DNA of 64,000 bases. Origin: a virus. The stretch is taken from the IMG/VR virus record IMGVR_UViG_3300039412_000320; one strand, given 5' to 3'. This document shows, one piece after another, positions 3,267-62,255 of the stretch. Each line of letters opens with the position of its first letter. The stretch's first letter is position 1. A model generated the notes under the pieces. That model saw only the letters and a list, made by a program, of their open reading frames with translations. It was not told where the DNA came from and did no database searches. Both the position numbers and the translations under genes were made by a program.

Positions 3267-3267
3267 A

Positions 3268-41698: not shown

Positions 41699-42406
41699 AT
41701 GGTATTTAGAATATACGCAATGAAAATCAGAAGTCACACCACCGAGAAAAGCTGGATTGTCTACCTTATAACCAACAAAGTAAATGGGAAGGTGTATGTT
41801 GGTCAAACATCCTGTGGTTTGAAAAGGCGATGGGCACTCCATTGTTCCCCCTCGGCGGGAAACAAACATCTGTTGAACTCTATTCGTAAATATGGCCGTG
41901 ATTCCTTTGAAATCAGCATTATCCACGGTCCGGGGCTTACCTTTGAAGAATCTAGCACCTTAGAGAAACGGGAAATATCTAAGAGGAAGTCAACCGACCA
42001 CCAATTCGGATACAACCGAAGTACGGGGGGTGAAGGAGGTGCTAATGGTATGAGATTCCCCTCCGAAACTTACCCCAAAAGATTGGGTAGAAAATGCTCT
42101 GTCGAAACCATCAAAAAACTACGGGATGCTGCAATTGGCAGAAAGTGCTCACCCGAAACAAGAGTGAAATTGAGGCTGGCACTAAAGGGTAAGAAACCAT
42201 CTGCTAAGGCTATAGAAAACTCCCGTAATGTGTGGATTGGAAGAAAGCACTCACCGGAATCGAAAAGAAAAATAGGGGCGGCACAAAGGGAAGTTAGGGA
42301 GGTAAAACCGAGAACACCTGAAACAATTACTAAACTGAAAGCGGCTTGGAAACGACGTAAATTAAAAAACCCAGAAATGGTGTTCCCGTTTCAAAAGGAA
42401 AAATAG
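41699..42406 (+). CDS. GIY-YIG homing endonuclease
   Basis: WIVYLITNKVNGKVYVGQTSCGLKRRWALH is nearly identical in its GIY-YIG core to the ORF at 15674-16450. An alternative start lies at ATG 41720. The stop abuts the helicase start (TAGTATG). Confidence 0.8.
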   Translation: MVFRIYAMKIRSHTTEKSWIVYLITNKVNGKVYVGQTSCGLKRRWALHCSPSAGNKHLLNSIRKYGRDSFEISIIHGPGLTFEESSTLEKREISKRKSTDHQFGYNRSTGGEGGANGMRFPSETYPKRLGRKCSVETIKKLRDAAIGRKCSPETRVKLRLALKGKKPSAKAIENSRNVWIGRKHSPESKRKIGAAQREVREVKPRTPETITKLKAAWKRRKLKNPEMVFPFQKEK

Positions 42407-48332: not shown

Positions 48333-49091
48333 ATGAAACAAGTATGTGGAGTTTACTGTATTTCTCTTGTTAATACAGAGCGCAACTATGTCGGGCAAGC
48401 CAAAGATGTTTTCAAACGTTGGAGGGAGCATCGGTGGGCTTTATCTAAGGGTGTGAATAAATCCAAAAGATTGCAAAGGGCGTGGAACAAATACGGTTCC
48501 GCTGCTTTTCTATTTAGGGTTTTGGAAGAATGTCCGTGCGACCCACTTGTGTTACTTACGAGAGAACAATATTGGATTGATGAACTTCAAGCCCACAAGA
48601 AAGGATTTAACTGTTCTCCGGTTGCTGGTTTGTCTACCTTGGGGGTTAAGTTTTCCGCTTCAACTAAGGCTAAGATATCAGAAAAAGCCAAAGGAAGGGT
48701 GATATCGGAAGAAACAAGAAGGAAAATTAGTGATGCCTTGAAGGGTCGATTATTTTCCTCAGAGCATAGGGCTCGATTATCGAAGGTAAGTACTCAAAGA
48801 ATGCTTACCTCTCCTGATAGATTTATTATCGGAAAGTGGTCTCACAACCACCCTCGTTTTGGAAAGGACAACTCGTTTTATGGTAAGCATCACTCGGATG
48901 ATGTAAAATTAATAATGTCAGAAAAACATCAAGGGAAAACAGCCTCTTCTGAGCTTTGTGCTTTACGCTCTAAAAATGCAACTGGGAAAAACAACCCCAT
49001 GTTTGGAAGAAAACATTCAGAAGAGACTAAGGAAAAAATTAGGCAAGCCCGAATTTTACGGGTTACGAGTATTGTAAGACAGGAAAGCTGA
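48333..49091 (+). CDS. GIY-YIG homing endonuclease with NUMOD3-like repeats
   Basis: GVYCISLVNTERNYVGQAKDVFKRWREH is the GIY-YIG motif; it also has repeated S(E/P)ETRRKIS / HSEETKEKIRQAR modules. It sits immediately downstream of nrdJ. Confidence 0.8.
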   Translation: MKQVCGVYCISLVNTERNYVGQAKDVFKRWREHRWALSKGVNKSKRLQRAWNKYGSAAFLFRVLEECPCDPLVLLTREQYWIDELQAHKKGFNCSPVAGLSTLGVKFSASTKAKISEKAKGRVISEETRRKISDALKGRLFSSEHRARLSKVSTQRMLTSPDRFIIGKWSHNHPRFGKDNSFYGKHHSDDVKLIMSEKHQGKTASSELCALRSKNATGKNNPMFGRKHSEETKEKIRQARILRVTSIVRQES

Positions 49092-49774: not shown

Positions 49775-50242
49775 ATGGTCGTGGAATTGCGTCAAATCGC
49801 ACTGTACCCCGAATCGGGGAAGCTGTGTCGGCTCCCGTACCCCGGTCATCCGAAGGGCTGTCCATGTTACGGACATAAAGTAGGGTGCCCCCCTGAGTGC
49901 GTCCGGTTTGTTGATAAGATAGATACCTCCCAACCCGTTTACGCTATAATCAATGAATTCGACTTAGCAAACCATATGCGAAGGATGAAGTTGCGTCATC
50001 CGCAGTGGTCGGAACGGCAACTTCGGTGTTGCCTGTACTGGCAGACCGGGCCACGCAAGAAGCTCGCTGCCAAGGTTACGGCGTTTCTCGTGGAGCATGA
50101 GGATTATGTCGCTGATTTCTGTCCCGAGGCGGAGGGGGTGAATGTCACTCAGACTCTCCGATTATCTGGTATTAACTTAGAGTGGCCTCCGAGGAAAATA
50201 GCTCGGCAAGTCGCCTTCGTCGGCGTCCCAAAGGAGAAATAA
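49775..50242 (+). CDS. Hypothetical Cys-rich protein
   Basis: 155-aa ORF with the cysteine cluster CRLPYPGHPKGCPCYGHKVGCPPEC. Its stop overlaps the start of the peptidase gene. Confidence 0.5.
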   Translation: MVVELRQIALYPESGKLCRLPYPGHPKGCPCYGHKVGCPPECVRFVDKIDTSQPVYAIINEFDLANHMRRMKLRHPQWSERQLRCCLYWQTGPRKKLAAKVTAFLVEHEDYVADFCPEAEGVNVTQTLRLSGINLEWPPRKIARQVAFVGVPKEK

Positions 50243-50796
50243 TGTCTTGTGTAGCAGCCGTGGTTGAAAAAGGAAAGGTTTGGATGGGCGCTGATTCTGC
50301 GGCCTCTGATGGTGAGGATATGGTGACTCTCACCAACAGGAAGGCATTCTTTAACGGACCCTACTTGATTGGAGCGGTGGGGTCGATGCGTATGACACAG
50401 CTTCTCCAATACAAGCTGGAACCCCCTGCTTACACGGACCCCAAGGTTCCCCTGATAAAGTTCATGGCAACCGAGTTTATTGAGGCGGTGCGCCGGACGT
50501 TCAATGTGGGCGGCTTCATGGCACAGCAGGATGAGCACAGCAGCACCGGGATATTTCTCGTGGCCTTTAGGGGACACATCTTCCGCTTCGAGGGAGACTT
50601 TCAGGTGTTTGAGAGGGTGGACGGCTTTGAGGCAATCGGCTGTGGAAGTCCTTACGCTCTTGGGGCGCTTAGCGTCACCCCTGACGACCCTGCTAAGCCC
50701 CGGCTGGAGAAAGCACTTATGGCGGCGACATATTTCAGCGCCCATGTGCGCAAGCCCCACCTGATACTGAATGAGGATGGCAAGGAAAATTGTTAA
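50242..50796 (+). CDS. HslV/proteasome beta-like Ntn-hydrolase peptidase
   Basis: C-terminal FEAIGCGSPYALGALSV closely parallels HslV AIGSGGPYALAAARAL. The N-terminus MSCVAAVVEKGKVWMGADSAASDG parallels HslV (M)TTIVSVRRNG...GDGQ but has Ser/Cys at the nucleophile position. Start taken at the ATG after AAGGAGAAATA. Confidence 0.6.
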   Translation: MSCVAAVVEKGKVWMGADSAASDGEDMVTLTNRKAFFNGPYLIGAVGSMRMTQLLQYKLEPPAYTDPKVPLIKFMATEFIEAVRRTFNVGGFMAQQDEHSSTGIFLVAFRGHIFRFEGDFQVFERVDGFEAIGCGSPYALGALSVTPDDPAKPRLEKALMAATYFSAHVRKPHLILNEDGKENC

Positions 50797-50990: not shown

Positions 50991-51160
50991 GTTTTGATGT
51001 TTTTGAACTACCGACAGTATTATATAGAAGCGAGATGAACATGAAAACGGTCATCACAAACCCGGTTGACACGATAGAAGCGGTCGCCGCAGTGTGTGAG
51101 GGAGGCGATACCTCGCCTTCGGGAGGGCTTGGATAGAAAATCCAAGCAAGGACCCCCGAA

Positions 51161-51189
51161 GGCGCTCGAAAGAGCGCCTTTTGTGTTTT
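51161..51189 (+). terminator. Intrinsic terminator
   Basis: GGCGCTC GAAA GAGCGCC hairpin (GNRA loop) followed by TTTTGTGTTTT. Confidence 0.6.
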
Positions 51190-51202
51190 AAGGAGACTTT
51201 TT

Positions 51203-51281
51203 ACTCCGGTGAGTCGAGCGGCTAAGACACCTGCCTTACAAGCAGGTAAACTCGTGGGTTCGAGTCCCACCCGGAGTACCA
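51203..51281 (+). tRNA. tRNA, anticodon UAC (Val) by manual fold
   Basis: Acceptor ACTCCGG/CCGGAGT. Anticodon arm CCTGC-CTTACAA-GCAGG has a loop identical to E. coli tRNA-Val(UAC). T arm GTGGG-TTCGAGT-CCCAC. CCA is encoded. Confidence 0.75.
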
Positions 51282-51292
51282 AAATTAAATAT

Positions 51293-51370
51293 GCCCCGGT
51301 AGCTTAGTGGCTTCAAAGCGCCACCTTCACACGATGGAGAACACAGGTTTGAGTCCTGTTCGGGGCACCA
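51293..51370 (+). tRNA. tRNA, anticodon CAC (Val?) by manual fold
   Basis: Acceptor GCCCCGG/TCGGGGC. D stem GCTT/AAGC. Anticodon arm CCACC-TTCACAC-GATGG (one mismatch). T arm ACAGG-TTTGAGT-CCTGT. CCA is encoded. Confidence 0.7.
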
Positions 51371-51604
51371 AGTTCTGGTTGACAGTAATGTCTACCAGAT
51401 GTCAACGTATACGGCTAATCCGGCTGACGACCGGTGTTATCGGCGACTTACGTTAAGAGCCGCCCTGTTTTAAGCCTTGTGGCGGGTAACCGCAGCGGTC
51501 ATAGACGACTGTAAATAGAAGGGCATCCAAGGCTGGCCTCTCCCGTTCGATTTGGGATACTGTGCTCATGGGTATGGTAAGCCAGCCCACAAGGCGAAAG
51601 ATTT

Positions 51605-51678
51605 GCAGGGGTAGCACAATGGCAGTGCGGGACGTTGCCAACGTTCATACGGGAGTTCGATTCTCCTCCTCTGCTCCA
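51605..51678 (+). tRNA. tRNA-Gly (GCC)
   Basis: Acceptor GCAGGGG/CCTCTGC. D arm GCAC-AATGGCA-GTGC. Anticodon arm GGACG-TTGCCAA-CGTTC. T arm GGGAG-TTCGATT-CTCCT. CCA is encoded. Confidence 0.85.
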
Positions 51679-51685
51679 AGTTTGT

Positions 51686-51759
51686 GGGGCCATCGTCTAA
51701 TGGGAGGACTTCTGCCTTGCACGCAGAAAACCGGGGTTCGACCCCCCGTGGTTCCACCA
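51686..51759 (+). tRNA. tRNA-Ala (UGC)
   Basis: Acceptor GGGGCCA/TGGTTCC with G3:U70. Anticodon arm TCTGC-CTTGCAC-GCAGA. T arm CGGGG-TTCGACC-CCCCG. CCA is encoded. Confidence 0.85.
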
Positions 51760-51763
51760 AAGT

Positions 51764-52312
51764 TTAGGCATACTTAGACATCCCTCGGGATTGTCTTCCG
51801 TTGCCTTTATTTCGACCACAGAAAGTTGGAGTCTGGCTGTTGCAGTTTGGACAAGTTAAGCGGACGTTGTCTGGTTTACAGTTTCCAGCATCTCCATCAA
51901 TGTGGTCTACGACTGGAATAAGGGGTTTGTTGCACCAAACGAGCAGCATACCGCAGATTTCACAGTTATTTCCTCTTTTTGAGATGAGGATTTTGCGGAT
52001 GGTTTTTCGGTGCTTGACTCCCCCTAGTTCAAACTGTTCTAGGGCCTTTGCATGGAGGTAGTGCCCACGTCCTTTCGGTTCTGGTTTCGGTTTTTTTGGT
52101 CTCTTTGCGTTGCTTGCTTTTGCCGAACAAGAACTGGAGCAATATGTGTTATCAAACCGTTTGTTGTAGGGGATGGATGCTTCGCATACGGGGCAACGTT
52201 TAGGGCTGAGCATGTATTTAGCTTCATTTTTAGCAGTCCGGCTCTTGTTGCTGCATGCTAGCGAACAATAGATGTGGTTTGCTGGTGTATTACAGACTGG
52301 GCATTGATTCAT
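51764..52312 (-). CDS. HNH homing endonuclease
   Basis: VDHIDGDAGNCKPDNVRLTCPNCN is the classic HNH core; there are several CxxC pairs upstream. Start placed at the internal Met (MNQCPVCN). The longer ORF-track start at 52363 would overlap the tRNA-Gly at 52326. Confidence 0.65.
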   Translation of the reverse strand: MNQCPVCNTPANHIYCSLACSNKSRTAKNEAKYMLSPKRCPVCEASIPYNKRFDNTYCSSSCSAKASNAKRPKKPKPEPKGRGHYLHAKALEQFELGGVKHRKTIRKILISKRGNNCEICGMLLVWCNKPLIPVVDHIDGDAGNCKPDNVRLTCPNCNSQTPTFCGRNKGNGRQSRGMSKYA

Positions 52313-52325
52313 AGTTGTTTTTTGG

Positions 52326-52400
52326 GCGGGATTGATGTCAATGGTAGCATGCCACGCTTCCAACGTGGTCGTACCGATTCGACTTCGGTATCCCGCTCCA
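52326..52400 (+). tRNA. tRNA-Gly (UCC)
   Basis: Acceptor GCGGGAT/ATCCCGC. Anticodon arm CCACG-CTTCCAA-CGTGG. T arm ACCGA-TTCGACT-TCGGT. CCA is encoded. Confidence 0.85.
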
Positions 52401-52446
52401 ACCTCCTATAAAAGGAGGTCGAAAGTCGGTTTTCGCTAAAGTTTAG

Positions 52447-52520
52447 GCGGGTATGGTATATTGGGTGTGCCCAACCTTCCCAAGGTTGTGAAACGGATTC
52501 GATTCCCATGTCCCGCTCCA
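52447..52520 (+). pseudogene. Degenerate tRNA-Gly-like element (anticodon CCC), probable pseudo-tRNA
   Basis: Its ends (GCGGGTA...GTCCCGCTCCA) match the neighbouring Gly tRNAs and it has a clean anticodon arm CAACC-TTCCCAA-GGTTG. The T stem (ACGGA/CCCAT) does not pair and acceptor pairs 6 and 7 are mismatched. It also contains TGGTATATT, an extended -10-like sequence. Confidence 0.4.
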
Positions 52521-52681
52521 AGATTGTAGTCACTCTAAGGGCTGTCGAAGCTGACGAGTGGCGAGGTTCTACCAGCAGGGTCCCTCAGTAAGGGGGACTG
52601 TGGTGGTTCCCCTGAAAAGGGACCCCGAGCAGTAGAACCTGCGGATGACTAGCTTAACCAGCCGGTTGTCCCGAATTTTGC

Positions 52682-52783
52682 GGGTGTAGCTTAATCAGAG
52701 CGGTGGTCCACCAGACCACGCCGTGTCCGGGCTTGATATCAAGTCAGGCATGTTGTACCGGCTGAACGCCGGTCGCCCGCTCC
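52682..52783 (+). ncRNA. tRNA-Gly-like element with a ~37-nt insertion between the anticodon arm and T arm
   Basis: It shares its 5' end GCGGGTGTAG and 3' end CGCCCGCTCCA with tRNA-Gly(CCC) at 58750. The acceptor pairs, the anticodon-like arm is GTGGT-CCACCAG-ACCAC, the T-like arm is ACCGG-CTGAACG-CCGGT, and there is a long extra region containing the palindrome CTTGATATCAAG. Confidence 0.4.
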
Positions 52784-52790
52784 AGTTTGT

Positions 52791-52865
52791 GGGCCTGTAG
52801 CTCAGCGGGAGAGCGCTTGCTCGACAAGCAAGAGGTGGTAGGCTCGACCCCTACCGGGCGCACCA
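52791..52865 (+). tRNA. tRNA, anticodon GAC (Val?) with C33
   Basis: Acceptor GGGCCTG/CGGGCGC (6 of 7 pairs). D arm GCTC-AGCGGGA-GAGC. Anticodon arm CTTGC-TCGACAA-GCAAG. T arm GTAGG-CTCGACC-CCTAC. CCA is encoded. The unusual C at position 33 lowers confidence in the anticodon call. Confidence 0.65.
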
Positions 52866-52877
52866 AAGTTTGGGACC

Positions 52878-52958
52878 GGAGCTTAAGCAGAACCTTCTGC
52901 CATCGGAAGAGCGTAGTGTTTACAACACTTGGGGGTGGGAATCCCTCCGGCTCCACCA
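52878..52958 (+). ncRNA. tRNA-like element ending in CCA, non-canonical
   Basis: 3' end CGGCTCC-A-CCA with T-like arm GGGGG-TGGGAAT-CCCTC and a 5' partner GGAGCTT. The interior (hairpins GCAG-AACCTT-CTGC and GTGTT-TAC-AACAC) cannot be folded into a standard cloverleaf by hand. Confidence 0.3.
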
Positions 52959-53044
52959 AGAACGACGCTGGGTTCGTGCTCCAGAAGTGGGTGACACGAC
53001 GCCAAGGAGAGGGGTTAACAGCCCGGAGAGTAGGACCAGCGTCA

Positions 53045-53695
53045 TCAAGTTTTGGGTACGTCGCCTAATGGGATGGCACTTCCCTCGCACGGAAGAACGA
53101 TTGCGGGTTCGACTCCCGCCGTATCCACCAAGTTTTTGAAAGTATATAGTCCATCCTTAGCGATGAAGTGTTCATCTTCATGGCAGGTGGGGCAAAGGAT
53201 TTCAAGGTTTTCAGGTTTGTTGTTTTTTCGATTGCGGTCTATATGGTGAACCCGCAGAACTGGGGTAAAGCGGGCGTATCCACAACGATTGCATTTTTTT
53301 GGATGATGTTTGAATGCAATTTCTCGATACGCCGCTCCACCGTTAGTGTAATGGTCTGGTCTCATATCATGAAATGCCTCACCGGATAGGATAGACTGAG
53401 CGTGGTCTTTACATGCCCGTGAGCAAAAAAGCAGACCAGATTTTGATGCTTTAATTTGAGCGGGGCGTTTTTCAAAGCTAGTAAAGCAAAATGAGCATTT
53501 TACAGTAACTCTTGTTCTACTAGCAACCCCCGAGCACTCTCTTGAGCAGTATTGACCATTAGAGTGTTTGGGTAAGTAAAAAGGCCTTTTGCATGTGGGA
53601 AGTGTACAGTAATGAAGAAACAGCCTTCTTGGCTTCCCATCGTAGAGTGTAGATATTATTGATTCTTCGGGTGGATTTGATATGTCAGTATGCAA
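53045..53695 (-). CDS. HNH homing endonuclease
   Basis: RVHHIDRNRKNNKPENLEILCPTCHEDEH is the HNH core. The stop-to-stop ORF runs across the tRNA-Ala(CGC) gene on the opposite strand. Confidence 0.65.
   Translation of the reverse strand: MHTDISNPPEESIISTLYDGKPRRLFLHYCTLPTCKRPFYLPKHSNGQYCSRECSGVASRTRVTVKCSFCFTSFEKRPAQIKASKSGLLFCSRACKDHAQSILSGEAFHDMRPDHYTNGGAAYREIAFKHHPKKCNRCGYARFTPVLRVHHIDRNRKNNKPENLEILCPTCHEDEHFIAKDGLYTFKNLVDTAGVEPAIVLPCEGSAIPLGDVPKT
53054..53130 (+). tRNA. tRNA-Ala (CGC)
   Basis: Acceptor GGGTACG/CGTATCC with G3:U70. Anticodon arm CTTCC-CTCGCAC-GGAAG. T arm GCGGG-TTCGACT-CCCGC. CCA is encoded. Confidence 0.8.
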
Positions 53696-53737
53696 GTGTG
53701 ATTACCTCCACCTATGTATTTGATAGTTGATTTTCAC

Positions 53738-53811
53738 GGCCTGTTCGTCTATCGGCAGGACAGCAGATTCTCAATCTGTAAAGAGGGGTTCGATTCCCCT
53801 ACGGGCTACCA
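53738..53811 (+). tRNA. tRNA, anticodon CUC (Glu) by manual fold
   Basis: Acceptor GGCCTGT/ACGGGCT. Anticodon arm GCAGA-TTCTCAA-TCTGT. T arm AGGGG-TTCGATT-CCCCT. CCA is encoded. Confidence 0.75.
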
Positions 53812-53818
53812 AATTCAT

Positions 53819-53895
53819 GGGGTCGTAGACAAGTGGCTTAAGTCGCCAGATTCTCAATCTGGAAACCGTGGGTTCAAATCCCATCGGCCCTGCCA
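53819..53895 (+). tRNA. tRNA, anticodon CUC (Glu?) by manual fold; second copy with a different body
   Basis: Acceptor GGGGTCG/CGGCCCT. Anticodon arm CCAGA-TTCTCAA-TCTGG. T arm GTGGG-TTCAAAT-CCCAT. Discriminator G. CCA is encoded. Confidence 0.75.
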
Positions 53896-53907
53896 AGTGG
53901 AGATGTT

Positions 53908-54105
53908 GTGGCAACGTTGACGCTGGACATAAACGAGGAAGCGAAGTTCAAGGCTTGGGAGAAAGAGCACAAGAAAAAGTGCAAACTCCGGCCCGGTACG
54001 TGTGGTGACCTTTACAGCTTCAACATCTGCCCAAGTGGTATTGGGGATTTTATCAGTGTTCACTGCCCGTGTGGAGCACAAGCAGACCTGACGGGAAGTT
54101 TGTAA
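53908..54105 (+). CDS. Small Cys-rich protein (zinc-ribbon-like)
   Basis: 65-aa ORF with a GTG start after GGAG. Contains CKLRPGTCGD...CPSGIGDFISVHCPCG. Confidence 0.35.
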   Translation: MATLTLDINEEAKFKAWEKEHKKKCKLRPGTCGDLYSFNICPSGIGDFISVHCPCGAQADLTGSL

Positions 54106-54375
54106 AAGGCAAGACCATGAGCCTATGGATAACATCATTCACAAACTGCTGGTATACGAGCCAATTCGTATATTTGATGAGTTTAGCCACTGGATTGTGG
54201 TAGGATGGATGATTCTCCATACGTTGAGTTGGGCGATAGTGGAAGGATGCCGACTCTACTGGTCAACGAAAATAAAGATTAGGCGCATTTTCATACAAGA
54301 TGTCGCCGAAGAGTAACGCACCTGTCGCCAAGTGGAAAGGCATAATTTGAACTACCAACCCCCTTTATAGGGGTT

Positions 54376-54888
54376 ATGATGCTTATTTGCAAAAATTGCG
54401 GTGGGTATATTCCATCAAGGGTAAATGTTGATGGGAAAATAAAAAAGCTGAACGGTCGCAGGTATTGTTTATCCTGTAGCCCATTTAAGGGAAAGAAATT
54501 TAATTATGAAACTGACCGGGATGAGAATAGAAATTTCCACTGCCGCTTATGTGGTCAGAACACCGGTCCTCGCAGGCGTATGTGTAATACCTGTGTATCC
54601 CGCATTAGACGTTTTCGAGCTAAACGTACAGCCGTAAAGTGGCTTGGAGGAAAATGCAATCGGTGTGGATGGGTCGGAGACATTGCGGCTTTTGAGTTTC
54701 ACCACCCCGGAGACAACAAAGAGTTCGATATTGGTACGGTTAGTAACAGAGCATGGGCAACGATAGTCAAAGAATTAAAAAAATGTGAATTACTCTGTTC
54801 CAACTGTCATCGTACCGAACATCATGGCATCCGTGATGAGAATTTCTTAAAAATAGCGGATGAATATGGTGGAAAAATTTATGTTTAG
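54376..54888 (+). CDS. HNH homing endonuclease
   Basis: N-terminal CxxC pairs. C-terminal FEFHHPGDNKEFDIG...CELLCSNCHRTEHH is the HNH core. Confidence 0.7.
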   Translation: MMLICKNCGGYIPSRVNVDGKIKKLNGRRYCLSCSPFKGKKFNYETDRDENRNFHCRLCGQNTGPRRRMCNTCVSRIRRFRAKRTAVKWLGGKCNRCGWVGDIAAFEFHHPGDNKEFDIGTVSNRAWATIVKELKKCELLCSNCHRTEHHGIRDENFLKIADEYGGKIYV

Positions 54889-54889
54889 T

Positions 54890-54963
54890 GACTCGGATTC
54901 CGAATGGTTAGGAGGCGGTCTGCAAAACCGTTTAAGTGGGTTCGATTCCCATCCGGGTCTCCA
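54890..54963 (+). tRNA. tRNA-Cys (GCA)
   Basis: Acceptor GACTCGG/CCGGGTC. Anticodon arm GCGGT-CTGCAAA-ACCGT. T arm GTGGG-TTCGATT-CCCAT. CCA is encoded. The gene starts 2 nt after the HNH stop. Confidence 0.85.
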
Positions 54964-54969
54964 GTTTAA

Positions 54970-55046
54970 GCACGGGTACCCAAGCGGCTTAAGGGACAGG
55001 TCCGCAAAACCTGCATTCATAGGTTCAAATCCTATCCCGTGCTCCA
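54970..55046 (+). tRNA. tRNA, anticodon GCA-like (Cys?) with C33
   Basis: Acceptor GCACGGG/CCCGTGC. D arm CCC-AAGCGGCTTAA-GGG. Anticodon arm CAGGT-CCGCAAA-ACCTG. T arm ATAGG-TTCAAAT-CCTAT. CCA is encoded. Confidence 0.65.
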
Positions 55047-55155
55047 AGTGAGGTCATGGCTACCATTGACCACGTAGTGGGTGCGGGCAAAATGATGAGG
55101 CTGCTGCCCGCCTTTGTACTCCCAAACGTGGATACTTCGCAGCCTCAAACTTTAT

Positions 55156-55233
55156 ACCGTGGAAGACAAAGTCGTCGAGTCCTCTGGCTTTCAACCAGAG
55201 CATTAGCGGGTCCGAGTCCCGTCCACGGTACCA
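55156..55233 (+). tRNA. tRNA-Glu (UUC)
   Basis: Acceptor ACCGTGG/CCACGGT. Anticodon arm TCTGG-CTTTCAA-CCAGA. T arm GCGGG-TCCGAGT-CCCGT. CCA is encoded. Confidence 0.8.
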
Positions 55234-55238
55234 ACTCT

Positions 55239-55332
55239 GGGGGATAGCACCGACGTGCAGGCAGGTCCTATAAACCTGTAGTTGCGGCTGATTACCGTGC
55301 TCGGCGGGGATTGACACCCCGGTCCCCTACCA
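55239..55332 (+). ncRNA. 94-nt tRNA-like element (class II-like, non-canonical)
   Basis: 7-bp acceptor GGGGGAT/GTCCCCT plus A-CCA. T-like arm CGGGG-ATTGACA-CCCCG. Anticodon-like arm CAGGT-CCTATAA-ACCTG. Long extra arm with a GCGG/CCGT hairpin. The D region is a tight GCAC-CGAC-GTGC hairpin with no GG. It is followed by TTTTTT. Confidence 0.4.
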
Positions 55333-55368
55333 TTTTTTAAGAATCTCAGTATTAGTCCTTGGGAGCAT

Positions 55369-55575
55369 ATGATGAAAAAGGAAAAAATCAGGGATTACGA
55401 GGTTCAGGCAAAACTCACACTCTACACCAGTACCACTGTTTCGGCCCGGTCTTTAGAGGAAGCGACTGAAAAGTCAAAAAACCTTAAGGAGCAGGATTTC
55501 GTAGACTTCAACGGTGATTACATCGATGGTAATATGCGGATTACCGGAGTCTATGAGTCTGGGTTTGAACTATAA
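55369..55575 (+). CDS. Hypothetical small protein
   Basis: 68-aa ORF between the tRNA block and the tmRNA. Confidence 0.4.
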   Translation: MMKKEKIRDYEVQAKLTLYTSTTVSARSLEEATEKSKNLKEQDFVDFNGDYIDGNMRITGVYESGFEL

Positions 55576-55675
55576 GTAATGTGACGGTTTGGGACACTCC
55601 GGTGGTTACATAAGGGACATGCCTTAGGGCACTACGCTCACACTGGGTAGCATATATGCGGTGTCCCGTTTAATG

Positions 55676-56026
55676 TGGGGGCGTTCTGGTTTCGACGGGA
55701 GCGCTCATTGCAGGAAGGCACGCCGGGAGGTTACCCTGCCCGTAACAAGGGTTAACAACGCAATTGCCACAGCGCAATATGCATTTGCTTAATCGCTAGA
55801 TTAGGCACGCTTGCTCTGCTTTAGCCTGTCGGGTAGAGGCCAAGCGCCGATAGAGAGGCTGCGACCGGGGATGCAGCCGATATCCGGCGAGATAAAGGCT
55901 TGCACCGTGGTTCTGATATGCCTGTTTCAGCAGAGTCATGGCAAAGAGCAGTACGAAGCAGGATAAGCGTGTAGTCTTCTTGTTGTGACACTTTTCGGAC
56001 CTGGGTTCAAATCCCAGCGCCTCCAC
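55676..56026 (+). ncRNA. ssrA: tmRNA (transfer-messenger RNA)
   Basis: 5' end GGGGGCGTTCTGGTTTCGACGGG matches the tmRNA consensus GGGGCUGAUUCUGGAUUCGACGGG. The 3' tRNA-like end CTGGG-TTCAAAT-CCCAG CGCCTCC A CCA pairs with the 5' end. An internal tag ORF GCA ATT GCC ACA GCG CAA TAT GCA TTT GCT TAA encodes (ANN)AIATAQYAFA*. Confidence 0.8.
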
Positions 56027-56208
56027 CAAAAAATTTATGGCTTCCGCCAAATGTTCCAAATGCAAGCATCGTAAATACAAAAAGCCCTGCACCGTAAGGG
56101 TCAAGGTCAAGGGGTGGATGAAGAGTATCCCGCCCGGATGGCAACAGGATTATGAACCCTGCGGGTGCAAGGAGACGGTGTGAGTAATTGCGACCGCTGA
56201 TATCCATT

Positions 56209-56820
56209 ATGAGTTGCCACGCTCACCGTCGCTGGCAGCAGCAACTCAGGGAAACATGGTTGAGAGAGTGCCCGGTTGATTATCGGTTTTTCTTGGGTAG
56301 TCCCAAATTGGAAAATGCTGATGATGATGAGGTTTCGCTGAATGTTTCTGACACATACGGAGACCTCTCATCCAAGGTCCAAGCTGCATATCAATGGGTG
56401 ATAATGTACAGCTATGACCACGTTTTTAAGTGTGATGTTGATACCTATGTTTGCACCCCTCGGTTACTCCGGTCGGGGTTTGAGCGGCATGACCATATAG
56501 GACAACGGGGTGTGGGGGAAAATAACCAACCCTACGGAGGCTCCGGGTACTGGCTCAGTAGGAAAGCGTTAGAGTTTCTTGCGTCAGCGCCCTGCTTAAA
56601 GGACACCCGTTGCTACAACGATGAGGATTGGTGGGTATGGGCAACGCTGTCATTTAATAGCGTTTGTCCCACAGAGCACGATGGTCGTTACAGTATGACG
56701 GAGGGAAGGGTCCCTCTCCCGGAAAACGACATCATCACTTACCACCCACACACACTTACCACCGAAGAACGTTTCATGGGCATTCAAATGGTCCACGAAA
56801 AGGCCAAGGAGATTAGATGA
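56209..56820 (+). CDS. GT31-family (Fringe/beta-1,3-galactosyltransferase-like) glycosyltransferase
   Basis: HRRWQQQLRETW fits the GT31 signature RR..IR.TW. It also has a DxD-like KCDVDTYV and YGGSGYWLSRKAL (GT31 GGGyvlSr motif). Start taken at the ATG at 56209; the ORF track starts at TTG 56188. Confidence 0.6.
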   Translation: MSCHAHRRWQQQLRETWLRECPVDYRFFLGSPKLENADDDEVSLNVSDTYGDLSSKVQAAYQWVIMYSYDHVFKCDVDTYVCTPRLLRSGFERHDHIGQRGVGENNQPYGGSGYWLSRKALEFLASAPCLKDTRCYNDEDWWVWATLSFNSVCPTEHDGRYSMTEGRVPLPENDIITYHPHTLTTEERFMGIQMVHEKAKEIR

Positions 56821-56833
56821 ATTTGGTAGCACT

Positions 56834-56870
56834 ATGTAGTGTGAGATGTAGTGTGAGATGTAAGGTGACG
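56834..56870 (+). repeat. Tandem 12-nt direct repeat (ATGTAGTGTGAG x2 plus a degenerate third copy)
   Basis: ATGTAGTGTGAG ATGTAGTGTGAG ATGTAAGGTGACG, directly downstream of the glycosyltransferase stop and upstream of the RNase P RNA-like element. Confidence 0.6.
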
Positions 56871-56959
56871 GCGTGAGCATCGGGAGCATGAGTTACTATC
56901 TTACTTTGAAGGCCCTTGACCCGGATGGGTCGAAGGGAATCTTCGCTCCTAATAATCCC

Positions 56960-57205
56960 AAGTTTGGAAAAGGTTTGTGGACTGGACAACTGCTGCCCCG
57001 CAAGGGGGAGAGGAAAGTCGGAGCTACACAGAGCACCGTGCGGGGTAACGCCCCGGCGCAGTAGCAATACTGCGACAATTAGAGCAACAGAGACGAGCCG
57101 GTTAAGTCCGGGTGAAACGGGCAATCTTCACGGGGAGCAATCTCGAATAGGAGGGGATGAACCTGCTCGGTTCGCTATAACCCTCGGGTTGAGAGCTTGA
57201 CCCCC
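56960..57205 (+). ncRNA. rnpB: RNase P RNA-like element (bacterial type A-like, apparently minimised)
   Basis: Collinear matches to E. coli M1 RNA conserved regions. (1) GAGAGGAAAGUCGGAGCUACACAGAGCA matches GGAGGAAAGUCCGGGCUCCAUAGGGCA. (2) Hairpin CGGGG-UAACG-CCCCG matches CCAGG-UAACG-CCUGG, with compensatory changes. (3) GCAACAGAGA is an exact 10-mer. (4) CCGGGUGAAACGGG matches AGGGUGAAAGGGUG. (5) GAUGAACCUGCUCGGUUCGC matches GACAGAACCCGGCUUAUCGG, with AGUCGG/UCGGUU able to form P4. It has a short GCAA-capped P3. Boundaries are approximate. No credible protein ORF covers the region. Confidence 0.45.
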
Positions 57206-57323
57206 CTAGTAATAGGGGGGGCTAGATTGATGGTTGTCGCCTCGCAAGAGGAACAAAACTCCGCTTATAAGTCCACAAATAATTTAGTGATTTGACTACG
57301 GCAACCTTATTAGAGAGATTGCC

Positions 57324-57788
57324 ATGAAACAAAGTAAGTCACAAAAGCGGTTGAATGCGGACTATACAAGACAGTTAGGTATGAGTCCGGGGTCAGCTAC
57401 CCATAAGCTTACTCGAAACCTTCTTTTTAGGTACATCCAACAAAACCACGATGATGTTTGTTATCGCTGTGGTTCAAAGATTGAGACGTTAGCATCTTTT
57501 AGCATTGAACACAAAGAGCCTTGGCGTAATTCGGACCCGAATCTGTTTTGGGATTTAGAAAATATTTCGTTTGCCCATAAAAAATGCAATATTCAGGCAG
57601 CCCAACACATCGGAAAAAGAGTAATAGGTCCACCGGGAACAAGCTGGTGCTCAAATCACAAAATGTTTTTTCCTGTTGATAGGTTTTATAAAAACCGGTC
57701 AATGTGGAATGGGTTACACCGTCAGTGTAAAGAGTGTCATAAAAATTGGAAGAAGGCTTATAGGTCCACAAAATTTTCAGTATTATAG
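57324..57788 (+). CDS. HNH homing endonuclease
   Basis: CYRCGSKIE...FSIEHKEPWRNSDPNLFWDLENISFAHKKCN is an HNH core with a zinc ribbon. Confidence 0.65.
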   Translation: MKQSKSQKRLNADYTRQLGMSPGSATHKLTRNLLFRYIQQNHDDVCYRCGSKIETLASFSIEHKEPWRNSDPNLFWDLENISFAHKKCNIQAAQHIGKRVIGPPGTSWCSNHKMFFPVDRFYKNRSMWNGLHRQCKECHKNWKKAYRSTKFSVL

Positions 57789-58076
57789 CTTGGTGCGTGA
57801 TGCGAATCAGCGCTGCTTGACCACGGATTTACTCAGCAATGGGAGCCGAGCTAGTAACTCTTTTACCGGGGGCCGCAAGAAGAGTGCGGATAGTCGGCTC
57901 ACTTCCAATTCCGCCGACGATAAAGATTGTAGGATGGTGAACAAGGCTACCCTATCGGGTCGAACCTTACTTTAGTTAGTAGTTGTGATTGGTCGTTTGT
58001 GGTCGCTGTTGTTGCGATTATTGATTAGGACCCACGACGCTGACTTGTTGGTCCCCGTCCAAATTCAAGGAGGCAT

Positions 58077-58712
58077 ATGAAATCCGATTCCGCATTTATC
58101 GCCGTAGTTTTAGACCGTTCCGGTTCCATGAGCATCGTCAAGGATGCGACCATCGACGGCTTCAACGAGTTCATCAATGGGCAGAAGCAGCAGCCCGGAG
58201 AAGCCCATCTCCTGTTGGTCCAATTCGACTCCATTGACCCCCATGAAATCGTTATCGACGCACCTTTGACGGACGTTCCAAATCTGACCAAGGACACCTT
58301 CTCCCCACGGGAGAACACTCCCCTGCATGACGCCATGGGGTGGACGATTATCGAGGTTGGCGAGCGGCTGGAAAAGATGCCGGAAGAGGAGCGCCCGGAG
58401 AAGGTCATCATCGTCATCCTCACGGATGGTCATGAGAACGCCAGCAAGGAATTCACGAAGGAAAATGTGGCGAACATGGTGAAGCACCAGACAGAGAAGT
58501 ACAACTGGACCTTCATCTTCTTGGGAGCCAATCAGAACGCCGTTCTGACCGCCAAGGGATTCAACATTTCGGCGGATACTTCCATGAGCTACAACAACAA
58601 CCCCTCCTCCACTCAGGAGGTATACCTTGCCGTAAGCGCCAACACCAGCGCCGTCCGGCGTGGTCTCAAGGCGTCGTTCACTTCCGCCCAACGGAAGGCG
58701 GCAAAACAGTAG
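58077..58712 (+). CDS. von Willebrand factor A (vWA) domain protein
   Basis: AVVLDRSGSM is the MIDAS DxSxS motif; it is followed by IIVILTDGHEN and a Rossmann-like alternation. RBS AGGAGG. Confidence 0.7.
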   Translation: MKSDSAFIAVVLDRSGSMSIVKDATIDGFNEFINGQKQQPGEAHLLLVQFDSIDPHEIVIDAPLTDVPNLTKDTFSPRENTPLHDAMGWTIIEVGERLEKMPEEERPEKVIIVILTDGHENASKEFTKENVANMVKHQTEKYNWTFIFLGANQNAVLTAKGFNISADTSMSYNNNPSSTQEVYLAVSANTSAVRRGLKASFTSAQRKAAKQ

Positions 58713-58749
58713 CCTGTTTGTATAGACAGGCTACCGAATCCTTATATAT

Positions 58750-58826
58750 GCGGGTGTAGTTCAGTCCGGTAGAACGCCAGCTTCCCAAGCTGGATGTCGT
58801 GGGTTCAAATCCCATCGCCCGCTCCA
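58750..58826 (+). tRNA. tRNA-Gly (CCC)
   Basis: Acceptor GCGGGTG/CGCCCGC. D arm GTTC-AGTCCGGTA-GAAC. Anticodon arm CCAGC-TTCCCAA-GCTGG. T arm GTGGG-TTCAAAT-CCCAT. CCA is encoded. Confidence 0.85.
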
Positions 58827-58828
58827 AT

Positions 58829-59023
58829 ATGCGTCACGTGGATACAATCCCCGACTGCCTCCTGCCTTTCATGACGCAAGAAAATTTCAATCTACTCGAA
58901 GCTACCCCGTGGTCAACCATTTTAGAGGAACGTAAGAGGCTCGCCGACGCTGGCAACTGGTATAGGCTGCAAGCAATAAACACCTACGTTTTTCAATATT
59001 ATAAGGACGGGAATAGACATTAG
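58829..59023 (+). CDS. Hypothetical small protein
   Basis: 64-aa ORF starting 3 nt after the tRNA. The longer ORF-track version overlaps the tRNA. Confidence 0.3.
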   Translation: MRHVDTIPDCLLPFMTQENFNLLEATPWSTILEERKRLADAGNWYRLQAINTYVFQYYKDGNRH

Positions 59024-59041: not shown

Positions 59042-59671
59042 ATGGAACCCCTAGTGGGGGGCAATATGCCAAATATAGATTGGATTGGTAGGGAATTTGG
59101 GCTTTGGAGAGTCTTATCCCAAGGTAAGCGGGATGGGTATTTGCTGTGCTTGTGTCAAGGATGTAATAATCAAAAAGAGGTTGGGAAACAGACTCTCAAG
59201 AGAGGGACATCTACAAAATGCTTACAATGTAGGTACCGTAGCCAAAGGGGAAAACAATACCCTTGGGGTCCTCCGCAGTCTTCTCTCTCTGTAGAGGAGA
59301 TTTTTGTTAATAGACTCTTCTATCGGTACCGTCAACATGCAGAAGAACGGGGCCTTGAGTGGAAACTCACGAGAGAGGAGTTCTCCTCTATCATAAAGCG
59401 GGATTGTTACTGGGGCGGCTGTGCTCCGAAGATGAGGTTTATGCGCAAACACAAAAAGGATGTCAAGAGGGGTCGGGATGTTGGGATGATTGCAAATGGT
59501 ATTGACAGGTTGGACAACTCACTGGGGTATACTTTGGACAACACGGTTCCATGTTGCAAGGAGCATAATACCATGAAGTCTTCTCTCCCCGCCAATAGGT
59601 TCTTGGAATTAGTGAAGTCAGTATACATGCTTCATTGCAGGGGGGTTGATGAAAGCTCAGCTTTTGAGTGA
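59042..59671 (+). CDS. His-Me finger (HNH-like) homing endonuclease, paralog family A
   Basis: IDWIGREFGLWRVL...CLCQGCNN...TKCLQC and C-terminal ANGIDRLDNSLGYTLDNTVPCCKEHNTMK. A likely alternative start is ATG 59066 after GGGGGG. Confidence 0.7.
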   Translation: MEPLVGGNMPNIDWIGREFGLWRVLSQGKRDGYLLCLCQGCNNQKEVGKQTLKRGTSTKCLQCRYRSQRGKQYPWGPPQSSLSVEEIFVNRLFYRYRQHAEERGLEWKLTREEFSSIIKRDCYWGGCAPKMRFMRKHKKDVKRGRDVGMIANGIDRLDNSLGYTLDNTVPCCKEHNTMKSSLPANRFLELVKSVYMLHCRGVDESSAFE

Positions 59672-60803: not shown

Positions 60804-62255
60804 ATGCGCAACCCACTGTTGTGTCCAAAGACGGCTATCTTGACTTCACCCAGTTATCTGGAGTCTCTCTATTCCCTCCTTTCGGGTGACCAAAGAAATG
60901 ACCGGTCCGCTTATCTCGAAGCCCGTCAGCATCTTGGCTCCGCCATCAACACCGTATCGGCAAAGATTCCCCCCAAGAGTCGGTTGACCAGAGATATCCG
61001 CTTTGCTCGCTGGGATATGGAGACCGCTAACGCCTTCGCCAAATCGGGAGATTGGGGCGCAGCAGCAGATAGCCAGCTACACGCTGTCTGGAAACTCCAG
61101 AACGTCGTAGCGGCCCTCCAGCGCAGCAAAAAGGCATACGGGTATGATGTTTGTCTTACCGCTGACTCTCAACTTCCGCTGCTGGACGGAACAGAAATAG
61201 CCATAGTTGACCTTCTAGGAAAGGACCATTTCTGGGTTTATTCAATAAACGAGAAGGGAATGCTTAGACCCGGATACGGGCATGACGCCCGACTGGTTGA
61301 AAAAGATGCCCCCCTACTAGAAGTAAGGTTGGACAACGGTAAAACTATAAGGTGTACCTTTACCGAGAGATTTATGCTAAGAGGGGGAGGATACAAACGG
61401 GCAGCAGAACTTATCCCCGGAGATTCCTTGATGCCTCTCTACAGAGACTTGGCTCCGATTGCTTTTGAGGGTAATGAATATGAAAGGACATACGAGCCGG
61501 GTAGAGAATCGTGGAAGTTTACCCATCGTTTTGCGGAAGCTAGATGTCCAAAGGGGTATGTAAGACATCATAAAGATTTGAATCGCTTCAACAATTCCCC
61601 TGACAATCTCGCTGTTATAACTTGGGAAGAACATCAGAAATTGCATCAAGAGTTGGGAGTTCCAGTTACAGATAAAGGGCGGACGGCACGTAGCCGTAAC
61701 ATGTCCAAAATTAACTCTGACCGCAAGGGGAAACCACGTCCTTGGGCACACTTTCCTCATCCGTGGGTGAATAAAGAAGAAAAGGCCAATATTTTGGTGA
61801 AATACAGGGAGTTGTTGGGGGAAGAGGGGTTTGTTGTTGCCCAGAAGCACAGAAGTCAACTAGCTACCCACAAACGCTGGCACACAGACCGCCAGATAGT
61901 CTCTGCCACTTGTTTGCTTTGTGCCTCCGTTAATCATAAGGTGGTATCAGTCGCATCTGCTGGTACTGCTGATGTATATGATTTTATTGTTGATAAGTAT
62001 CATAATTTCGCTTTGAGTGCCGGGGTTTTTGTACATAACAGTGGGCAAACACAGGGAGAAATTTTCAACGGCTCGGAGGCAATTGCCAACCGGGAAAACC
62101 AGAAGAATATTGACGACACGGCACAGCCGTTTGAGCAGCACCAGAATGTTAAAAATCCACTAAATCTAACAAGGGACTGGGAGGCGGAGAACGACTACCC
62201 CTCGCTCGCTGAAAAGAAGAGCAAGCGGATTCACTGGCCTCCCCGACTGAGATAA
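60804..62255 (+). CDS. Small hypothetical protein interrupted by an HNH-containing intein
   Basis: Exteins are aa 1-116 and the last 71 aa. The central 296 aa show intein termini. Confidence 0.65.
61152..62039 (+). mobile_element. Intein with embedded HNH endonuclease domain
   Basis: Begins [21 protein letters not shown] (block A). Internal [27 protein letters not shown] is an HNH motif. Ends [24 protein letters not shown] followed by +1 Ser (block G, HN|S). Confidence 0.75.

Follow-up and report, generated by a model that had tools for sequence, protein, structure and literature searches.

A bacterial class A RNase P RNA gene in a phage island of tRNA, tmRNA, and HNH endonuclease genes

RNase P is regarded as a universal and essential cellular enzyme, and to our knowledge every account of phage tRNAs, from the classic T4 precursors onward, has their precursors cut by the enzyme of the host. 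Here we describe a gene for a bacterial class A RNase P RNA (rnpB) that lies with 13 tRNA genes and a transfer-messenger RNA (tmRNA) gene on the + strand at positions 51203-58826 of a 64,000-nucleotide viral sequence (IMG/VR record IMGVR_UViG_3300039412_000320; this whole stretch of DNA is hereafter called the window). Four HNH endonuclease genes are interspersed among these RNA genes, and a fifth is located just beyond them. The tRNA, tmRNA, and HNH parts of this island belong to known kinds, and the phage RNase P RNA is the likely new element.

Huge phages are known to have large genomes with many tRNAs, tmRNA, and translation genes (PMC7162821), and the tRNA and tmRNA part of the island fits such repertoires, to which the ribozyme gene is an addition. 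In the 2020 survey of huge phages by Al-Shayeb et al., RNAs were sought with tRNAscan-SE and ARAGORN only, and its text makes no mention of RNase P, rnpB, or ribozymes (PMC7162821). There are likewise zero occurrences of RNase P in the recent jumbo-phage reviews listed in our literature search. Surveys made with tRNA and tmRNA finders alone have missed phage rnpB genes.

Other described systems share single properties with the island. In phage T4, the free-standing homing endonuclease SegB is encoded inside a tRNA cluster, recognizes a T-psi-C motif, is missing from related phages, and drives preferential inheritance of itself and of neighboring tRNA genes (PMC2330249). SegB is a GIY-YIG enzyme, whereas the five putative enzymes of the island are of the HNH type and include one that would target the end of rnpB instead of a tRNA gene. 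Because SegB is a well-studied analog, the HNH homing part of our findings is a further example of a known phenomenon. Phage-encoded ribozymes have also been associated with phage tRNA genes: theta ribozymes resembling those of hepatitis delta virus adjoin tRNAs in gut phages and were proposed to confer freedom from host tRNA-processing nucleases (PMC10879173). These RNAs are small and self-cleaving, with a proposed cis action on 3′ trailers, whereas RNase P RNA is a trans-acting, multiple-turnover ribozyme that acts on 5′ leaders. Among organelles, jakobid mitochondria (PMC3590771) and glaucophyte plastids (PMC6330054) are small dependent genomes that keep both rnpB and the tmRNA gene (ssrA) beside tRNA genes. 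The organellar genes were inherited from a bacterial ancestor, in contrast to the phage copies, which are accessory and are not found in the 100 kb scanned of the phage Tunturi_5 (see below). The only earlier claim of a virus-borne RNase P-like RNA that we found concerns an orthopoxvirus RNA with some structural resemblance but no pre-tRNA processing activity (PMC3001073); the phage RNA, in contrast, can be assigned without ambiguity to the bacterial family on both sequence and structure.

A 4.5-kb concatenate of 13 diverse rnpB sequences was compared with 50,697 deposited phage records, and no credible rnpB was recovered, the 11 matches being all bacterial-looking or unannotated fragments. 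The rejected matches included a Salmonella genome, contigs of "Acinetobacter phage MD-2021a," and unannotated fecal "Bacteriophage sp." fragments. An rnpB-like match in Microcystis phage MaAM05 (L296, MW495066.1, 111-119 kb) was also rejected, as it lies among fabI, engB, mtgA, and glyS in what looks like bacterial chromosome. A blastn comparison of the island with the same records yielded tRNA-sized matches only, and thus no close relative has been deposited there. Searches of the open-access literature turned up no account of an RNase P RNA encoded by a phage, and such an RNA has likely been undescribed so far, although an earlier report may exist elsewhere. A first-pass annotation of the window, made from the sequence alone, had remarked that a phage-borne RNase P RNA together with a tmRNA would be unusual, and for the RNase P RNA these records and the searchable literature bear this out.

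The same annotation took the genome to be phage-like, which the coding content of the window upholds. Encoded are a baseplate wedge, a collagen-like tail fiber, a phage lysozyme, an SLT-domain tail lysin, a DnaB/DnaC-like helicase loader, a ribonucleotide reductase, and two GIY-YIG endonucleases. The 1488-aa baseplate wedge shows 46% identity over 78% of its length to the homolog from Tunturiibacter phage Tunturi_5, and gene order near the tape-measure, replication, and ribonucleotide reductase genes resembles that of this phage. Tunturi_5 is a cultured jumbo myovirus whose hosts are Acidobacteriota, and its 309-kb genome encodes 43 tRNAs (PMC11924767). The window is part of a huge tailed jumbo myophage related to Tunturi_5, with a genome of roughly 320-340 kb. 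The Tunturi_5 relationship and the peat or soil sources suggest an Acidobacteriota host. Close relatives of the window in IMG/VR, with flanks that are ~95% identical, are L047 (a 316,945-bp contig) and L013 (a 75-kb contig).

The phage RNase P RNA and its recurrence in tRNA arrays

tRNA and tmRNA genes were called with ARAGORN, and RNA genes were scored independently with Rfam covariance models at their gathering thresholds. The rnpB gene matches RF00010 with 185.7 bits (threshold 100; E 2e-58) from model position 1 to 367, end to end and without truncation. Helices P1-P5, P7-P12, and P15-P18 are present, and the P18 GNRA hairpin, which corresponds to the variable hairpin at ~57196-57232, is intact. 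The P4 core consists of CR-I (GAGGAAAGUC...) and CR-V (ACAnAAC..GCUUA) with the bulged U conserved. Other conserved motifs are "ACAGAGA" in J11/12, "GGGUGAAA," the J12/13 motif, and "CGGGU" (GGU) in L15, which in the window reads "CUCGGGUUGAGA" aligned to the consensus "CGGGUa." The L15 GGU position (G292-U294) and the helix numbering follow the Escherichia coli M1 sequence. These helices, the P4 core, and the L15 GGU are shared with bacterial class A RNase P RNA (RF00010; E. coli M1). The phage copy differs from its bacterial counterparts in being virus-encoded, in its length of 310 nt versus the 367-column consensus, and in having no rnpA nearby.

P13 and P14 are absent from the phage RNA, which lacks 43 model positions, and only a small hairpin is left of P12. 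This absence does not exclude class A membership because many bacterial genomes show it as well, and the same junction motif is present in many genomes of Burkholderiales, Omnitrophota, and Planctomycetia, with the P13/P14-less RNAs of Burkholderiales being the nearest known counterparts. In some other phage rnpB genes (L108, L054, L055/L139, and L166), CR-I reads GAGGAAGUUC in place of the near-universal GAGGAAAGUC, and CR-V compensates (ACAGAAUCCUGGCUAU), which constitutes a covarying variant of the catalytic P4 helix. A very compact natural class A RNase P RNA of only 288 nt (166.9 bits) is present in L037 (7749-8036) and L002 (340-627), and in a viral contig of 205 kb its distance is 5 nt from tRNA-Val and 0 nt from tRNA-Arg.

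Both sequence conservation and covariation point to constraint on the RNA. Between the window and L047, there is 1 difference in nt 1-227 of rnpB, compared with 10 differences in the 115 nt of the rnpB leader (9%) and 82 in 1695 nt of flanking coding DNA (~5%), and purifying selection on rnpB is evident from this alignment. Covariation was assessed with 12 rnpB sequences from tRNA arrays in viral or metagenomic contigs by using an RNAalifold structure of 81 pairs. Changes on both sides of the pair (compensatory changes) were observed for 54 of the 81 base pairs. Paired cells amount to 96.2%, versus 35-43% in controls with slid partners, and the covariation score is 0.68, versus ~0.1 in controls; 0 of 500 shuffles reach the observed values, and although the structure is somewhat favored by its derivation from the same 12 sequences, it reproduces the canonical class A helices and the margin is very large. 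In P4 (columns 67-75 with 478-485), pairing is complete (100%), and five of the eight pairs covary. Given these features, the phage RNase P RNA looks like a functional ribozyme and is predicted to be catalytically active.

Scanning IMG/VR with the CR-I motif gave 53 loci, most of which were confirmed as rnpB by Rfam. In about twenty of these, rnpB lies inside a dense same-strand tRNA array on contigs of up to 463 kb (L002, L007, L009, L010, L012, L018, L021, L024, L026, L027, L030, L034, L035, L037, L042, L047, L049, L050, L052, and L053). A second motif, specific for the P13/P14-less junction, adds L054, L055/L139, L108, L158, L162, and L166. At least 25 viral or metagenomic contigs carry an above-threshold RF00010 match within a same-strand tRNA array, including contigs of 463, 369, 359, 317, 265, and 205 kb. 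The spacers between rnpB and its two tRNA neighbors are 0/2 nt in L050, 6/6 nt in L007 and L018, and 5/0 nt in L037, and one-sided spacers of 0-5 nt occur in L035, L024, L049, L030, L021, L162, L054, and L166. From this tRNA-like spacing of 0-6 nt, we infer that rnpB would be cotranscribed with the tRNAs and released by tRNA-processing enzymes.

There are at least six distinct neighbor contexts, each conserved within its group: Cys-rnpB-Gly, Leu(CAG)-rnpB-Arg(UCG), Ile-rnpB-Asp, Val-rnpB-Arg, Phe-rnpB-Ser, and Gln-rnpB-Gln. The rnpB sequences fall into about ten clusters, indicating several lineages that arose by independent acquisitions or by old divergence. Open reading frames (ORFs) beside the arrays have counterparts in phage orthologue groups, a phage helicase and an RtcB-type tRNA ligase among them. 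From L007 and L018 to the window, the order Cys ... rnpB ... Gly is kept, even though rnpB sequences across such phages are only 65-68% identical, which argues for inheritance within a phage lineage. Between the Cys and Gly tRNAs, the window lineage has gained the tmRNA, glycosyltransferase, HNH, and von Willebrand factor A (vWA) genes. Moreover, the exact protein encoded by the fourth HNH gene (HNH 4) recurs in an unchanged gene order on more than 20 contigs of up to 338,351 bp (JGI, ENA, Logan, and NCBI assemblies), and because these assemblies are independent, an assembly chimera is excluded.

Several other IMG/VR motif loci (L003, L014, L048, L025, and L045) carry very bacterial-looking rnpB genes (265-349 bits) and are probably host flanks. 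Only 0-1 tRNA is found near these copies, in contrast to the embedding of rnpB in tRNA operons in the phage relatives. A motif match in L041, a 385-kb IMG/VR contig, was spurious with respect to RNase P; this locus (5070-5488) instead encodes a GOLLD RNA (212 bits) within a 20-tRNA array.

Proposed role of the RNA and competing explanations

We consider it likely that the island is a stable-RNA operon region in which the phage's own RNase P RNA matures its tRNAs and tmRNA. The tRNA and tmRNA genes would be transcribed as multigene precursors, and the phage RNA would fold as a normal class A ribozyme whose L15 GGU pairs with the 3′ CCA of its substrates, a sequence that is encoded by 13/13 tRNAs of the island and by the tmRNA. 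The 5′ leaders would then be removed by the phage RNA, probably with host RnpA, and the result would be extra tRNA-maturation capacity or independence from host rnpB during infection. In most related phages, where the ribozyme gene is one unit of a tRNA array, its ends would be made by tRNA-processing enzymes, with the 3′ end produced by RNase P cleavage at the next tRNA. The sequences show that the RNAs are intact, constrained, covarying, and recurrent; catalysis, a protein partner, cotranscription, and a benefit to the phage are parts of the proposal. More generally, a functional RNase P ribozyme may be carried by numerous huge phages as a tRNA-operon unit that is released by tRNA-style punctuation, has its own 3′ end cut by RNase P itself, and permits maturation independent of host rnpB, a proposal that we hold about as likely as not.

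If the proposed role is correct, the gene would represent the first functional virus-encoded RNase P and an unrecognized class of phage auxiliary gene. A maintained phage RNase P gene would widen the list of core translation-related functions carried by viruses. Phage rnpB genes also supply compact natural ribozyme variants (288-310 nt, without P13/P14), and their embedding in tRNA operons suggests a self-releasing arrangement that could serve synthetic tRNA arrays.

Several observations weigh against this role. Pfam scans of ~37 window ORFs detected no RnpA, and a regular-expression search for the RNR motif of this protein over all ORFs of the window and the other loci returned nothing credible; with no RnpA gene found in the window, the RNA would need a host protein to act in vivo, one that may or may not be compatible with it. 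SmpB was also not detected among the ~37 ORFs scanned with Pfam. The first-pass annotation had described the island as a self-contained toolkit, a view that fails given that neither RnpA nor SmpB was found among the scanned ORFs of the 64-kb window. Presumably the RNAs rely on proteins that are supplied by the host or encoded in other parts of the ~320-340 kb genome, and the SmpB partner in particular may come from either source. In addition, the window rnpB is no longer flanked by tRNAs, having the glycosyltransferase gene upstream and an HNH gene downstream. Rfam models applied to 190-290 kb of Tunturi_5, the closest cultured relative, identified 34 tRNAs but no rnpB and no tmRNA in that 100 kb, indicating that the gene is dispensable for this phage type. 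Finally, in the 120 genome rows listed, most P13/P14-less rnpB genes belong to Burkholderiales, Omnitrophota, and Planctomycetia, and none of these 120 is from Acidobacteriota. The architecture therefore points to one of these three groups, at odds with the suggested Acidobacteriota host, and this mismatch bears on the origin of rnpB and on its fit to host RnpA.

The dependence on a host protein also fits a role in conflict, in which the RNA is a decoy that sequesters host RnpA or a replacement for host RNase P RNA destroyed by a defense system or by phage shut-off. With no phage RnpA found, the RNA must engage the host protein, and conflict elements abound in the genome that holds the island. 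Replacement of host components is a frequent theme in discussions of phage tRNA sets. A decoy function has been considered for the RNase P-like RNA of orthopoxviruses (PMC3001073). However, a pure decoy would need no intact catalytic core, no CCA-matched GGU motif, and no covariation in every helix, and placement as a unit in tRNA operons suits a processing role. No known defense system that targets RNase P RNA was identified in this analysis, and we regard a conflict role as unlikely.

Maturation of phage tRNAs also has to be weighed against explanations that give the RNA no function. The gene could be recently captured, functionless host DNA, or an artifact of assembly or binning that joined bacterial and phage DNA, as the probable host flanks with bacterial-looking rnpB in IMG/VR and the "Microcystis phage MaAM05" match among fabI, engB, and glyS would illustrate. 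This is very improbable here: the arrangement recurs in more than 20 contigs of independent assemblies and in the diverged relatives L047, L013, and L302, the core is far more conserved than its flanks and shows abundant compensatory changes, and the Cys-Gly tRNA placement is kept among phages with strongly diverged rnpB genes. Mimicry of an integration (att) site, by which the copy would restore its target after integration, we find scarcely credible. Genes for tRNAs and tmRNA, and occasionally other stable RNAs (ffs is an example; PMC12540744), are common integration targets, and the rnpB 3′ end is duplicated in the window. Yet the copy spans the whole RNA and is not limited to a 3′ portion, the duplicated sequence brackets an HNH gene and not an integrase gene, none of the scanned window ORFs matched an integrase, and in most phages rnpB sits inside tRNA arrays.

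HNH genes at RNA-gene ends

The first-pass annotation had counted four HNH genes interleaved with the RNA genes, and PHROG HNH matches (E 1e-18 to 1e-28) agree with this count. It had also placed such a gene in every larger gap of the array, which is accurate for four of the six gaps >500 nt. Of the other two, the gap at 55047-55676 holds tRNA-like remnants and a 68-aa ORF, and the gap at 56029-56973 holds the glycosyltransferase-like gene. The L047 array comprises 14 tRNAs in 2.3 kb with no internal ORF. HNH 1-4 are absent from L047 and HNH 4-5 from L013, with flanks that are ~95-98% identical. Because the five genes are missing in these relatives, they are insertions relative to them, and mobile. 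The likely start of HNH 1 is the Met codon at 52312, as the longer ORF would overlap tRNA-Gly.

HNH 4 is located exactly at the 3′ end of rnpB. The uninterrupted junction in L047 and L013 reads ...CCGCTTATAGGTCCACAAAATTTTCAGTATTATAGC..., whereas the window rnpB 3′ end reads ...CCGCTTATAAGTCCACAAATAAT and is followed by the HNH gene. The earlier copy, GCTTATAGGTCCACAAAATTTTCAG, recurs at 57756 as the last codons of the HNH 4 ORF, and the target duplication flanking HNH 4 is 17-26 nt. Identity between the window and L047 is 99.6% over 56974-57200, falls to 75.9% over 57201-57283, and is 113/113 after 57756. This drop beside HNH 4 and the subsequent recovery form a co-conversion-like patch, as would be expected if a ~555-bp tract came from a diverged donor. 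In the P18 stem within this tract, most positions differ from L047 and pairing is kept. The predicted target of HNH 4 is the L047-type junction GCTTATAGGTCCACAAAATTTTCAGTATTATAGC.

In L302, which is more distantly related to the window, a homolog with 68% identity to HNH 4 occupies the same site, 34 nt downstream of rnpB. Other homologs are located inside a tRNA array (L303; 44% identical) and immediately downstream of a tRNA on a bacterial contig (L305; 46% identical). The contigs with homologs came from a protein search; a search for the HNH 4 locus in IMG/VR gave no match. Between the window and L047, tRNA identity is just 67-81%, and several tRNAs have a mosaic makeup, which fits repeated gene conversion. 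For example, nt 1-27 of tRNA-Val (GAC) match tRNA-Ala (GGC) of L047 exactly, and the borderline tRNA-Gly at 52447-52520 has 81% identity to L047 tRNA-Gly (UCC). The HNH genes probably encode selfish homing endonucleases that land on conserved RNA-gene ends and reshuffle the array by gene conversion. The suggestion in the first-pass annotation that the RNA genes themselves are homing targets gains support from the position of HNH 4, its duplicated target, and the HNH-free relatives, and the insertion at the rnpB end provides a concrete candidate homing site in a ribozyme gene. That one HNH family is specific in its homing for rnpB and tRNA-gene 3′ ends, taken jointly with a working phage RNase P, is a proposal to which we give an equal chance of being right or wrong.

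Other selfish elements are encoded nearby. The ribonucleotide reductase gene (45400-48282) contains a 331-aa in-frame insert at 46405-47397 that is not in L047, shows weak signals of intein splicing and of LAGLIDADG, and probably represents an intein that includes a homing endonuclease. Genes for two GIY-YIG/NUMOD3 homing endonucleases are at 48333-49091 (not in L047) and 41699-42406, and a 483-aa ORF at 60804-62255 contains an intein with an HNH_3 domain; its L018 homolog lies downstream of that contig's own rnpB array. With five HNH ORFs, two GIY-YIG genes, and two inteins, this region of ~20 kb is unusually dense in selfish endonucleases. In L047, a different endonuclease ORF (3222-3695; PHROG HNH family phrog_5046 with a LAGLIDADG-like "GLIDGEG" motif) abuts the tmRNA gene, and a 140-aa ORF is also located by the tmRNA. 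The window has neither of these two L047 ORFs.

Other features of the island

The features of the island are listed in Table 1. The first-pass annotation had counted 13-15 tRNAs, of which 13 stand by ARAGORN and 12 of these pass the Rfam gathering threshold (49-70 bits). The higher figure falls because four additional stretches, visible by eye or with relaxed ARAGORN settings alone (52679-52784, ~52880-52958, 55160-55237, and 55239-55332), give no match to the Rfam tRNA model at E<=1 and are regarded as remnants. The last of these is called as Ile-UAU by ARAGORN solely at a relaxed threshold. L047 carries a canonical tRNA-Glu (UUC) where the window has the remnants at 55160-55332, and the window is without that tRNA. 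Thus, the tRNA genes are many rather than a few isolated ones, and the tmRNA and RNase P RNA-like genes named in the first-pass annotation both have significant Rfam matches. Sub-threshold Rfam matches to tmRNA_permuted (24.9 bits; 55991-56187) and sraL (24.5 bits; 51050-51186) are probably chance or tRNA-like echoes.

Table 1. Coordinates of RNA genes, protein-coding genes, and related features of the island.
Feature	Position	Strand	Basis and remarks
tRNA-Val (UAC)	51203-51281	+	ARAGORN; Rfam 56.3 bits; CCA encoded
tRNA-Val (CAC)	51293-51370	+	ARAGORN, Rfam; CCA encoded; 11-nt spacer to preceding tRNA
tRNA-Gly (GCC)	51605-51678	+	ARAGORN, Rfam
tRNA-Ala (UGC)	51686-51759	+	ARAGORN, Rfam; 7-nt spacer to preceding tRNA
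HNH endonuclease 1	51764-52363	-	PHROG HNH E 2e-18; Pfam HNH_3 weak; absent from L047 array
tRNA-Gly (UCC)	52326-52400	+	ARAGORN, Rfam
tRNA-Gly (CCC), borderline	52447-52520	+	ARAGORN; Rfam 27.3 bits versus threshold 29
tRNA-like remnant	52679-52784	+	Gly-like acceptor ends, 105 nt; repeat families D4 and D18; unconfirmed as tRNA
tRNA-Val (GAC)	52791-52865	+	ARAGORN, Rfam
HNH endonuclease 2	53045-53695	-	Pfam HNH 25.5 bits versus 21.4; PHROG HNH E 2e-19
tRNA-Ala (CGC)	53054-53130	+	ARAGORN, Rfam; crossed antisense by 3′ end of HNH 2
tRNA-Glu (CUC), copy 1	53738-53811	+	ARAGORN, Rfam
tRNA-Glu (CUC), copy 2	53819-53895	+	ARAGORN, Rfam; 7-nt spacer
HNH endonuclease 3	54376-54888	+	phrog_2255 HNH E 1e-28; stops 1 nt before tRNA-Cys
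tRNA-Cys (GCA), copy 1	54890-54963	+	ARAGORN, Rfam
tRNA-Cys (GCA), copy 2	54970-55046	+	ARAGORN, Rfam
Two tRNA-like remnants	55160-55237, 55239-55332	+	By eye/relaxed ARAGORN; UUC anticodon-like loop in the first
tmRNA (ssrA), one-piece	55677-56028	+	ARAGORN; RF00023 134.5 bits versus threshold 47
Glycosyltransferase-like ORF	56188-56820	+	Between tmRNA and rnpB; Pfam Galactosyl_T weak
RNase P RNA (rnpB), bacterial class A, 310 nt	56974-57283	+	RF00010 185.7 bits
Inferred imported tract	57201-57755	+	Diverged rnpB 3′ end (P18 to P1 3′ strand) and HNH 4 cassette
HNH endonuclease 4	57324-57788	+	Pfam HNH 27.4 bits; PHROG E 1e-22; at rnpB 3′ end
Displaced original rnpB 3′ end (GCTTATAGGTCCACAAAATTTTCAGT)	57756-57781	+	Direct repeat with 57263-57288, family D8; read through by HNH 4 ORF
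vWA-domain protein (phrog_7371)	58077-58712	+	Pfam/PHROG; conserved neighbor
tRNA-Gly (CCC), top-scoring tRNA	58750-58826	+	ARAGORN; Rfam 70.3 bits
Fifth HNH/endonuclease VII-like ORF	59042-59671	+	PHROG E 1e-14; absent from L013

The tmRNA is 97.8% identical to its L047 counterpart. Its acceptor stem (GGGGGCG/CGCCUCC) includes a G3:U70 pair and is followed by the encoded CCA, and its tag, ATAQYAFA* (ending in a stop), is the same in the window, L047, L297, and L302. A scan of the island for promoters and terminators gave site numbers not above those of shuffled sequence, and none was convincing.

The glycosyltransferase-like ORF is 80% identical to the L047 copy, which occupies another position, and in the window it splits two segments that adjoin each other in L047. 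One junction of the gene (56834-56869) holds three tandem 12-nt units (ATGTAGTGTGAG twice, then ATGTAAGGTGAC), and a 19-nt repeat marks the other (56166-56184). The junction repeats and the different position in L047 indicate that this gene has moved. A segment of ~630 bp downstream of rnpB in L047 (705-1100) and L013, which codes for a DUF6847-like protein, is missing in the window at 57863-57868.

The tRNAs located by rnpB read almost exclusively GNN codons (Val, Ala, Gly, and Glu, with Asp in relatives), apart from Cys. This GNN-plus-Cys restriction is common to the window, L047, L007, L018, and L009, and because the set recurs, phage tRNA genes appear to be grouped by first codon base. The island is flanked by genes for an HslV-like peptidase (50182-50796) and the vWA-domain protein, both of which are kept in L047, L302, and L297.

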